A stretch of DNA of 45,272 nucleotides from Escherichia phage HannyBb: sequence record PP925841.1, one strand, 5' to 3'. Of this stretch, positions 32,326-33,697 are shown one piece after another (position 1 is the stretch's first letter; every line of letters starts with the position of its first letter). The translations under genes were made by a program, and so were the position numbers. Below the pieces are notes generated by a model. It searched no databases and had not been told where the DNA came from. It worked only from the letters and a program-made list of their open reading frames with translations.

Positions 32326-32748
32326 GTGGCAAAAGTTTTTACACAAGAAGAGCGGGAAAAAATTAAAGGGCAGGTGGTGGAACTCGTGCGCCAGAGCGGT
32401 CGTGAGACGTTACGGCAACTGGAAGCTAAAACAGGTGCGACTAGATATCTGATGAGCGTTCTTACCAGAGAGCTGGTAGCCAGTGGCGATGTATACAACT
32501 CCGGCTACGGGTTATTCCCGTCTGAACAGGCGCGTAAGGACTGGCAAAACGCCCGCAAAAAACTCTCGAGGGCAAAGGTGAAGAAACCTGCTGTGGTTGA
32601 TCCGGACCTTATCTGGTCATTACCTGATGGAGAAATACGCCGCTACGACAGTCGTCTAAACATAATCTGTCGCGAGTGCCGGAAGAGCGAAGTTATGCAG
32701 CGTGTTCTGACGTTTTATCAGGGGAATTATCGGGAGGTGATGCTGTGA
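32326..32748 (+). CDS. Hypothetical protein (GTG start)
   Basis: 140-aa ORF with AAGGGGGA Shine-Dalgarno; basic; function unknown. Confidence 0.4.
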   Translation: MAKVFTQEEREKIKGQVVELVRQSGRETLRQLEAKTGATRYLMSVLTRELVASGDVYNSGYGLFPSEQARKDWQNARKKLSRAKVKKPAVVDPDLIWSLPDGEIRRYDSRLNIICRECRKSEVMQRVLTFYQGNYREVML

Positions 32749-32978
32749 GTACATCGGCTACCATTCTCGACATGTGCTGTGGCAGTCGCATGCTCTGGTT
32801 CGATAAGAATGACGAATGGTCGATATTTAGCGATATCAGGAAAGAGGAACATTCGCTATGTGATGGACGTCACCCGATTATTAATCCCGACATTATCGCT
32901 GATTTTCGTGCGCTGCCGTGGTTGTCTGCTTTGCATCAAAAGCAGACATTACCAGATTTAGACATCTGTTTCCGATAG
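32745..32978 (+). pseudogene. Class I SAM-dependent methyltransferase N-terminal fragment
   Basis: 77-aa ORF (GTG start after GGAGG) with motif I ILDMCCGSRMLWFD, an acidic beta-2 end (FSDIRKEE) and a post-motif-I ADFRALPW block, then a stop where a complete enzyme would need ~100 more residues. Confidence 0.35.
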
Positions 32979-33031
32979 CCCGTTCTGATGCTACACTTTT
33001 TGCTATTTTCATGAACCTCATAAACACATTT

Positions 33032-33697
33032 ATGACTGTTGCTGATTTCAAACGCCCCAAATTGGAGCTCCCAAACGGGGCAAAAAAACTATTACTGCAC
33101 TCTTGCTGTGCTCCATGTTCCGGTGAAGTGATGGAGGCGCTTCAGGCCTCGGGAATCGACTACACCATCTTTTTCTACAACCCGAACATTCATCCTCAGA
33201 AAGAGTATTTAATTCGTAAGGATGAGAATATTCGCTTTGCTAAACAACACGGCGTGCCATTTATTGATGCTGATTACGACACAGACAACTGGTTTGAGCG
33301 AGCCAAAGGAATGGAATGGGAGCCTGAACGAGGGATCCGTTGTACCATGTGTTTTGACATGCGTTTTGAGCGGACTGCACTGTATGCCGCTGAAAATGGT
33401 TTCAGTGTGATCAGTAGCTCACTGGGCATTTCACGCTGGAAAAATATGCAGCAGGTTAACGACTGTGGACGGCGAGCCGTCGCGCATTATCCGGGCATGG
33501 TGTACTGGGATTATAACTGGCGAAAACAGGGCGGCTCTTCCCGTATGATTGAAATCAGCAAGCGCGAACAATTCTATCAGCAGGAATATTGTGGCTGCGT
33601 GTATTCACTGCGCGATACCAATCTACACCGCAAATCTCAGGGACGCCCTCTAATCAAAATTGGTCAACTCCACTACGGTAAAGAAGGACAGGAATGA
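33032..33697 (+). CDS. QueH-like protein (DUF208, epoxyqueuosine reductase family)
   Basis: 221 aa from MTVADFKRP with family-typical Cys motifs [11 protein letters not shown] and C-terminal YCGCVYSL; no Shine-Dalgarno seen. Confidence 0.55.

Follow-up and report, generated by a model that had tools for sequence, protein, structure and literature searches.

An intact queH gene adjoining a methyltransferase remnant in the lambdoid Escherichia phage HannyBb

The genome sequence of Escherichia phage HannyBb (sequence record PP925841.1) comprises 45,272 nucleotides (nt); it is analysed here at its full length and is referred to below as the window, with all positions counted from its first nucleotide. 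In its right half the window carries an open reading frame (ORF) that we assign to the epoxyqueuosine reductase family QueH and that lies directly behind the stump of a methyltransferase gene. A first-pass annotation made from the sequence alone had noticed a methyltransferase fragment followed by a QueH-like gene, and this observation was confirmed. Comparisons were made with 5426 complete Escherichia coli genomes and with the IMG/VR database, in which 189 viral contigs contain close relatives of QueH and 80 of the loci were examined. The central features of the locus are as follows.

32745..32917, + strand: methyltransferase-derived remnant, codons 1–58, ending in ...DFRALP (PHROG matches; colinear with intact genes to 32911)
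32745..32978, + strand: open frame of 77 codons, consisting of the remnant and 19 codons that run into the queH leader (ORF list and sequence)
32918..33031, + strand: non-coding queH leader, 114 nt (homology to methyltransferase-free queH loci; present in 80 of 80 IMG/VR loci)
33032..33697, + strand: queH, encoding a predicted epoxyqueuosine reductase QueH (DUF208) of 221 amino acids (aa) (Pfam PF02677, PDB 7LC5, six cysteines, fold search)

The queH product is a member of the QueH family

The queH gene starts with ATG 33032, in agreement with the chromosomal QueH homologues, and its TGA ends at 33697. The start codon lies 53 nt past the methyltransferase stop; the short spacer reported by the first-pass annotation is thus real, one nucleotide shorter than the 54 given there. 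That annotation had also recognized a full-length QueH by its CCxPC and CGC motifs. Both are in place, as CCAPCS at residues 25–30 and CGC at residues 187–189, together with RCTMC at residues 103–107, and a profile search returned a highly significant match to the DUF208/QueH family (Pfam PF02677; E=1.9e-65, 220.7 bits against a cut-off of 23.5) that spans profile positions 1–174 of 175. The solved QueH of Thermotoga maritima (PDB 7LC5) was matched with an E-value of 5.4e-22, at 29–30% identity. In alignment, Cys25, Cys26, Cys104, Cys107, Cys187 and Cys189 correspond to C9, C10, C87, C90, C169 and C171 of the T. maritima protein, and all six are invariant in 12 diverse sequences (from T. maritima, Staphylococcus aureus, Listeria, Acinetobacter, Enterobacterales, Sphingomonas and Lysobacter) as well as in 15 close homologues. 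According to work of Li et al. from 2021, these six cysteines reportedly bind a [4Fe-4S] cluster and an adjacent site.

The AlphaFold model of the phage protein (predicted local distance difference test score 67.6, predicted template-modelling score 0.70) resembles the solved QueH proteins, including T. maritima 7LC5, 7LC7 and 9DEU, in its adenine-nucleotide alpha-hydrolase-like fold. The five best Foldseek hits to the model were 7LC7, 7LC5, 9D86, 9DEU and 9DCO (E-values of 4e-10 to 4e-9, target template-modelling scores of 0.75–0.78), and the QueH structures were followed by the related folds of TtuA and LarE. RefSeq already names the gene QueH; in PHROGs the protein belongs to phrog_3217, a family of 'unknown function'.

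Compared with other prophage alleles, queH displays 26–33 synonymous and 6–7 non-synonymous differences, that is, a synonymous divergence (dS) of 0.22–0.29 and a ratio of non-synonymous to synonymous divergence (dN/dS) of 0.046–0.053. Against the REL606 allele the ratio is 0.065, derived from four synonymous differences and one non-synonymous difference. These low ratios argue that queH is under strong purifying selection. To judge from its sequence, then, the ORF is an intact, canonical and full-length member of the QueH family. A foreign base composition was considered for the gene and rejected, its G+C content of 47.7% being like that of its neighbours.

A perfect inverted repeat of 13 nt was observed inside the coding sequence (33039–33051 and 33549–33561), with one arm just past the start codon. 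It is kept at 13 of 13 positions in all prophage alleles despite a dS of ∼0.29 elsewhere, at 11 of 13 in the chromosomal gene of Scandinavium and at 6–10 of 13 in other chromosomal homologues. The repeat may reflect long-range pairing within the mRNA, with an effect on the initiation of translation, or else chance.

A methyltransferase remnant marks a recombination junction

The frame upstream of queH starts with GTG 32745, which is preceded by GGAGG and overlaps the TGA stop of the DUF977 gene (GTGA), and ends with TAG 32976–32978 to give a product of 77 aa. The first-pass annotation had opened this frame at 32676, too far upstream. Its description of the frame as a truncated S-adenosylmethionine (SAM)-dependent methyltransferase of ∼77 aa with motif I also stands: the SAM-binding motif I, ILDMCCGSR, occupies residues 7–15, and intact relatives are 157 aa long. 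The family assignment is borne out by PHROGs, where two 'DNA methyltransferase' families cover residues 3–61 (phrog_11564, E=2.9e-28; phrog_954, E=1.4e-24), and not by Pfam, in which a search with the 77-aa frame gave no match. The PHROG matches and those of QueH to its own family are far beyond chance.

Intact methyltransferase genes occur at the same site in relatives, where they likewise overlap the DUF977 stop, and their products carry a DPPH motif at residues 70–73. Protein alignment indicates that DPPH and everything else C-terminal of residue 58 (...FRALP) are missing from the HannyBb frame, which accordingly lacks a complete catalytic domain; the remaining part of the 157-aa protein is absent from the whole window. 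The nucleotide match to two intact methyltransferase genes stops at 32911 and the protein match at ∼32917–32919. RefSeq labels the frame as a pseudogene, 'missing C-terminus'.

For the right arm, PhiR42_1 is the closest sequenced phage; it is 96.4% identical to the window from 30706 to exactly 32911, and the match resumes only at 34296, within hokD. Between the equivalents of these two positions PhiR42_1 has a methyltransferase of its own, small ORFs, an insertion sequence, flxA, ydfV and relBE. Even the PhiR42_1 methyltransferase (locus positions 8609–8965) is not intact: a frameshift within a run of T has shortened it to 118 aa. Since this copy is also truncated, the methyltransferase gene evidently decays repeatedly within this group of phages, and it seems to be dispensable.

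At four prophage loci queH follows DUF977 directly, with no methyltransferase, and their homology to the window starts at 32909–32917. Because the homology to methyltransferases ends where that to these queH loci starts, the junction can be fixed within a few bases (32911–32919), and reading beyond it into the queH leader accounts for the final 19 codons of the 77-aa frame. The junction is identical in 71 complete E. coli genomes (at least 99% identity) and in 14 of the 80 IMG/VR loci; its presence in 71 complete genomes excludes a sequencing artefact. Most carriers have the queH cassette, made up of leader and coding sequence, without any methyltransferase. By these homology boundaries the 77-aa frame is a recombination remnant of a SAM-dependent methyltransferase, evidently a non-functional stump and an ordinary by-product of lambdoid mosaicism.

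The cassette and its surroundings

Alleles of the leader differ by an indel of 1 nt, which marks the leader as non-coding. It contains a hairpin of 10 bp at 32923–32948 (free energy −18.4, z-score −4.6), which is not conserved in the ST131 allele owing to two mismatches, and an extended −10-like element, TGCTACACT, at 32989–32997, which is conserved. No riboswitch or other known RNA was found near queH, an Rfam search of positions 30000–37000 (E≤0.1) having returned only sok and two weak unrelated matches, and a scan for consensus terminators next to queH found none. On either side of the cassette lie three further features.

32326..32748, + strand: DUF977 gene (Pfam PF06163, E=4.3e-29; phrog_142, 'Ren-like exclusion protein', E=2.7e-46)
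33704..34075, + strand: haplotype-specific, AT-rich segment of 372 bp (absent where queH abuts the hok region; no Rfam match)
34141..34465, + strand: hokD/sok type I toxin–antitoxin locus (Rfam sok RF01794, 115.3 bits; Pfam HOK_GEF, E=4.8e-23; annotated hokD)

With the DUF977 gene the conserved part of the replication module ends; the gene is found directly 5' of the queH cassette in most carriers, and the usual right-hand neighbour of the cassette is hokD/sok. In the window the 372-bp segment separates queH from hok/sok; 14 of the 80 IMG/VR loci have both this segment and the methyltransferase remnant, and all other carriers are without the segment. A hairpin within the segment (33776–33812; stem of 13 bp, free energy −22, z-score −3.1), which has no strong U tract, could be a putative transcription terminator of queH.

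A direct repeat of 14 nt is formed by GGTTGTCTGCTTTG at the left end of the cassette (32920–32933) and GGTTGTCTGATTTG inside the 372-bp segment (33904–33917). It may be a mark of the recombination that built this haplotype, or a chance resemblance.

Distribution of queH

The queH gene is present in 995 of the 5426 complete E. coli genomes (18%), nearly always on the chromosome and usually in one copy, and in 985 of these carriers the match spans at least 80% of the gene. The allele of the window was found in 72 genomes, including those of E. coli B REL606 and E. coli C, and an allele at 90–95% identity (∼94% in the rows sampled) in 849, among them ST131, O157:H7 and O104:H4 strains. All queH loci examined belong to lambdoid prophages and come after DUF977, as a rule ahead of hok, and the contents of this slot vary between prophages. 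In one prophage of E. coli O157:H7 Z1814 (locus positions 5851–7861), queH is followed not by hokD but by a cytosine methyltransferase and a restriction endonuclease of the NgoMIV family, which points to free exchange of cargo in the slot 3' of queH.

The statement of the first-pass annotation that the host normally uses QueG is upheld, as queG is present in all 5426 E. coli genomes; REL606 has both queG and queH. The annotation had further called a phage-borne QueH unexpected. This is justified with respect to the survey of viruses by Hutinet et al. (2019; PMC6884629), in which no homologues of QueA, QueG or QueH were found and from which the phage queH therefore departs, but not with respect to E. 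coli genomes, given that 18% of the complete ones carry the gene and that it has its RefSeq name. Our search of the literature turned up no publication that deals with queH on E. coli prophages. Phage-borne QueH is thus catalogued and common, yet apparently unstudied.

Outside E. coli and Escherichia albertii, the closest relatives, chromosomal genes retrieved by tblastn, share 92% (Scandinavium), 89–90% (Kluyvera and Enterobacter), 86% (Erwinia), 82% (Serratia) and 77% (Sphingomonas) of their amino acids with the phage protein, and that of Providencia falls within the same range of 77–92%. Proteins named QueH by their sources are 79–86% identical to phage QueH at the amino acid level. Nucleotide similarity to the chromosomal queH genes of Scandinavium, Kluyvera and Enterobacter (79–86%) is confined to the coding sequence, so that no donor locus can be named.

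Proposed function

E. coli is not known to make cobalamin de novo, and the title of a 1988 report by Frey et al. describes the reduction of epoxyqueuosine (oQ) in this species as cobamide-dependent. By family assignment, E. coli QueG, which is present in every carrier genome, and phage QueH would perform the same reaction on the same tRNAs. They belong to unrelated protein families and differ in cofactor: QueG is a cobalamin/[4Fe-4S] protein (PMC5175355), whereas QueH is described as an iron-dependent, cobalamin-independent alternative, and S. aureus as having both enzymes, with different cofactors and different expression (PMC13443448).

We consider it probable that queH is phage cargo which provides a cobalamin-independent step from epoxyqueuosine to queuosine (Q), and that it arrived by a recombination that replaced the methyltransferase. 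Recombination in the slot between the replication genes and the hokD/Q region would have swapped the 3' two-thirds of the methyltransferase gene and the DNA that followed it for the queH cassette. In the cell, host Tgt and QueA would build oQ on the tRNAs for Asp, Asn, His and Tyr, and phage QueH would reduce it (oQ34) to queuosine (Q34) on these host tRNAs. Since host QueG needs cobalamin, which E. coli does not make de novo, the completion of Q in a lysogen or an infected cell would become independent of the supply of vitamin B12. The anatomy of the locus, the family membership of its product, the selection on the gene and its distribution are established here, and the enzymatic activity of QueH in E. 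coli is inferred. Its benefit and its time of expression are proposed with less assurance. The position of queH in the rightward early operon, with the replication genes on one side and Q on the other, leads us to expect transcription at least during lytic growth.

Several observations weigh against this proposal. None of the 50,697 records of the phage collection that was searched is a verified phage isolate with queH. The search gave 24 tblastn matches, which are to bacterial or unverified contigs; the two closest, at 78% identity, are to records of 'Acinetobacter phage MD-2021a' of 329 kb and 379 kb, one of which was opened and looks bacterial, as it carries soxR and cynX (CAKLQH020000001.1 is among the QueH-encoding records of the collection). 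The two Staphylococcus and Listeria records that were opened are labelled UNVERIFIED_ORG, and a faecal 'Bacteriophage sp.' record that was opened is UNVERIFIED and unannotated. No NCBIfam model matches the protein. Its Cys29 stands at the position of Asp13 in T. maritima QueH, for which the structure of a D13N mutant has been deposited; Asp was found in T. maritima alone and Cys in all other homologues sampled, so that the motif seems commonly to take the form CCxPC. There is no Shine–Dalgarno sequence before ATG 33032, while the nearest chromosomal gene, that of Scandinavium, appears from its reading frame to have AAGGAG at that place. Nor was a consensus sigma-70 promoter called next to queH, the counts of the scan being no higher than those of shuffled sequences; on account of both absences the expression of queH in a lysogen is uncertain. 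We know of no phenotype that distinguishes oQ from Q, which makes the selective benefit a conjecture.

The gene has, in addition, been lost from BL21(DE3). This strain and its derivatives are without 1361 bp (window positions 32623–33983) that are present in REL606 and E. coli B, with flanks that are 100% identical. The deletion takes the 3' end of DUF977, the methyltransferase stump, queH and 280 bp downstream, and is the only difference between BL21(DE3) and REL606 at this locus; to our knowledge, no consequence of this loss of queH has been reported. As the deletion removes queH between identical flanks, REL606 and BL21(DE3) constitute a natural pair with and without the gene.

Alternative explanations

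The first-pass annotation had raised a frameshift that joins the two frames around 32918–32978, in which case a single gene, broken by the shift or by a sequencing error, would encode a methyltransferase–QueH fusion or some other single product. The QueH frame does extend upstream without a stop as far as 32918 and thereby shares positions 32918–32978 with the end of the methyltransferase frame, so that one shift could in principle join both. The idea founders on the occurrence of the same junction in 71 independently assembled complete genomes and 14 IMG/VR contigs, on the end of methyltransferase homology at 32911–32919 with the rest of the 157-aa protein nowhere in the window, on the self-contained cassette that most carriers have without the methyltransferase, on the 1-nt leader indel between alleles and on a start at ATG 33032 that fits the chromosomal homologues. 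We give it next to no credence and regard it as effectively refuted. Scarcely more probable is an action of QueH on a 7-deazaguanine or an epoxide-bearing base in phage DNA instead of tRNA. Phages do use queuosine-pathway genes for DNA modification; these are clusters of DpdA with FolE, QueC, QueD and QueE that combine the preQ0 branch with a DNA transglycosylase, and the 2019 survey found neither QueA nor QueG in them and QueH in none of the DNA-modifying viruses (PMC6884629). Such chemistry requires a transglycosylase of the DpdA/TGT type along with genes for preQ0 synthesis. In the set of ORFs with 120 aa or more, on part of which Pfam was run, no TGT/DpdA or preQ0 synthesis gene (FolE, QueD, QueE, QueC) was seen, and these ORFs represent Tritos-like structural genes (98.7%) and standard lambdoid early and late genes. 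The link to 7-deazaguanine chemistry in DNA that the first-pass annotation had suggested is therefore unsupported; unlike the clusters, HannyBb has the tRNA-specific last step only and no transglycosylase, and its protein is 77–92% identical to housekeeping chromosomal QueH.

An unlikely explanation, although the least improbable of the four, is that queH has no role and is carried along as a passenger beside the hok/sok addiction module. The gene has no recognisable promoter or ribosome-binding site, is redundant with the universal queG, was lost in BL21(DE3) and neighbours a methyltransferase that decays repeatedly. A functionless gene should, however, gather disabling changes as the methyltransferase did, whereas queH has maintained a dN/dS of ∼0.05 over a dS of 0.22–0.29 between prophage alleles, matches over at least 80% of the gene in 985 of 995 copies, and all the catalytic-site cysteines. 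Rather less likely again is a conflict over tRNA, in which Q rather than oQ at position 34 alters the susceptibility of the four Q-tRNAs to anticodon nucleases or biases decoding towards NAU-rich phage genes. Q has been proposed to modulate the decoding of NAU codons (PMC10570037). NAU codons have a share of 0.57 in the phage and 0.49 in a sample of host genes, but this modest excess is explained by the lower G+C content of the phage, and a codon-usage rationale for queH was rejected for this reason. Genes for nucleases or defence are not linked to queH, and we know of no effects of oQ versus Q on decoding or nuclease recognition that would speak for such a conflict. The B12-independent completion of queuosine on host tRNAs is the explanation that we favour.

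Relation to known systems and implications

The HannyBb gene represents a known enzyme in a new context and not a new kind of system. As a QueH system it is distinguished by its location on a temperate phage, not on a chromosome, and by its coexistence with the QueG of the host. Its position recalls the morons of lambdoid phages (relBE-hokD and flxA in Qin and PhiR42_1), as it occupies the same variable slot and is flanked by hok/sok. Like a moron it is a dispensable insert, being absent from PhiR42_1, which is colinear with the window to 32911 and again from 34296; unlike one, it is not clearly equipped with its own promoter and terminator, and its base composition is phage-like.

If the proposed function is correct, the last, tRNA-specific step of queuosine synthesis has been placed on a temperate phage, and with QueH an enzyme of the queuosine-specific branch would be known from a virus for the first time. 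A prophage queH accompanies the universal QueG in about one of every five complete E. coli genomes. If the enzyme is active, the availability of B12 would control the Q status of tRNA only in strains without a prophage queH, and E. coli B (REL606) would differ from BL21(DE3) or K-12 in the Q/oQ status of its tRNAs, which would bear on studies of queuosine and codon-biased translation and on the comparison of laboratory strains with one another. REL606, the ancestor of the long-term evolution experiment, is reportedly grown there in minimal medium free of B12. In broader terms, temperate coliphages might circulate a B12-independent QueH as a conversion gene that changes the tRNA modification state of their hosts when B12 is lacking; we consider this plausible, and somewhat short of probable.

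The phage and other features of the window

The first-pass annotation had taken the DNA for that of a phage, and the gene content agrees. The window begins with the gene for the large terminase subunit (GpA domains) and ends with a DUF1441 gene. Positions 1–24000 share 98.7% identity with the structural arm of Escherichia phage Tritos, with mEp460 and cdtI phage also close. The right half encodes an integrase, an excisionase, an exonuclease, dicB, cI/cro-like regulators, a YdaT-like gene and an O-like replication gene, followed by DUF977, hokD, rem, ydfU, the Q antiterminator and lysis genes. With a Tritos-like structural arm and the standard lambdoid genes in its right half, the window represents the entire 45-kb genome of a temperate lambdoid phage of the Qin/mEp460 type. 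Colinearity with the Qin-like prophage of E. coli FDAARGOS_144 is limited to ∼24.1–37.2 kb.

Directly after hokD/sok, positions 34474–34555 give a weak isrK-like Rfam match (25.7 bits against a gathering score of 50), which ends in a terminator-like hairpin at 34534–34551. In the structural arm, one of the tail-fibre genes (17900–21594) has a Peptidase_S74 chaperone domain. A serine invertase with Resolvase and HTH_7 domains (22158–22748, − strand) adjoins these genes, which suggests an invertible tail-fibre segment that switches host range.

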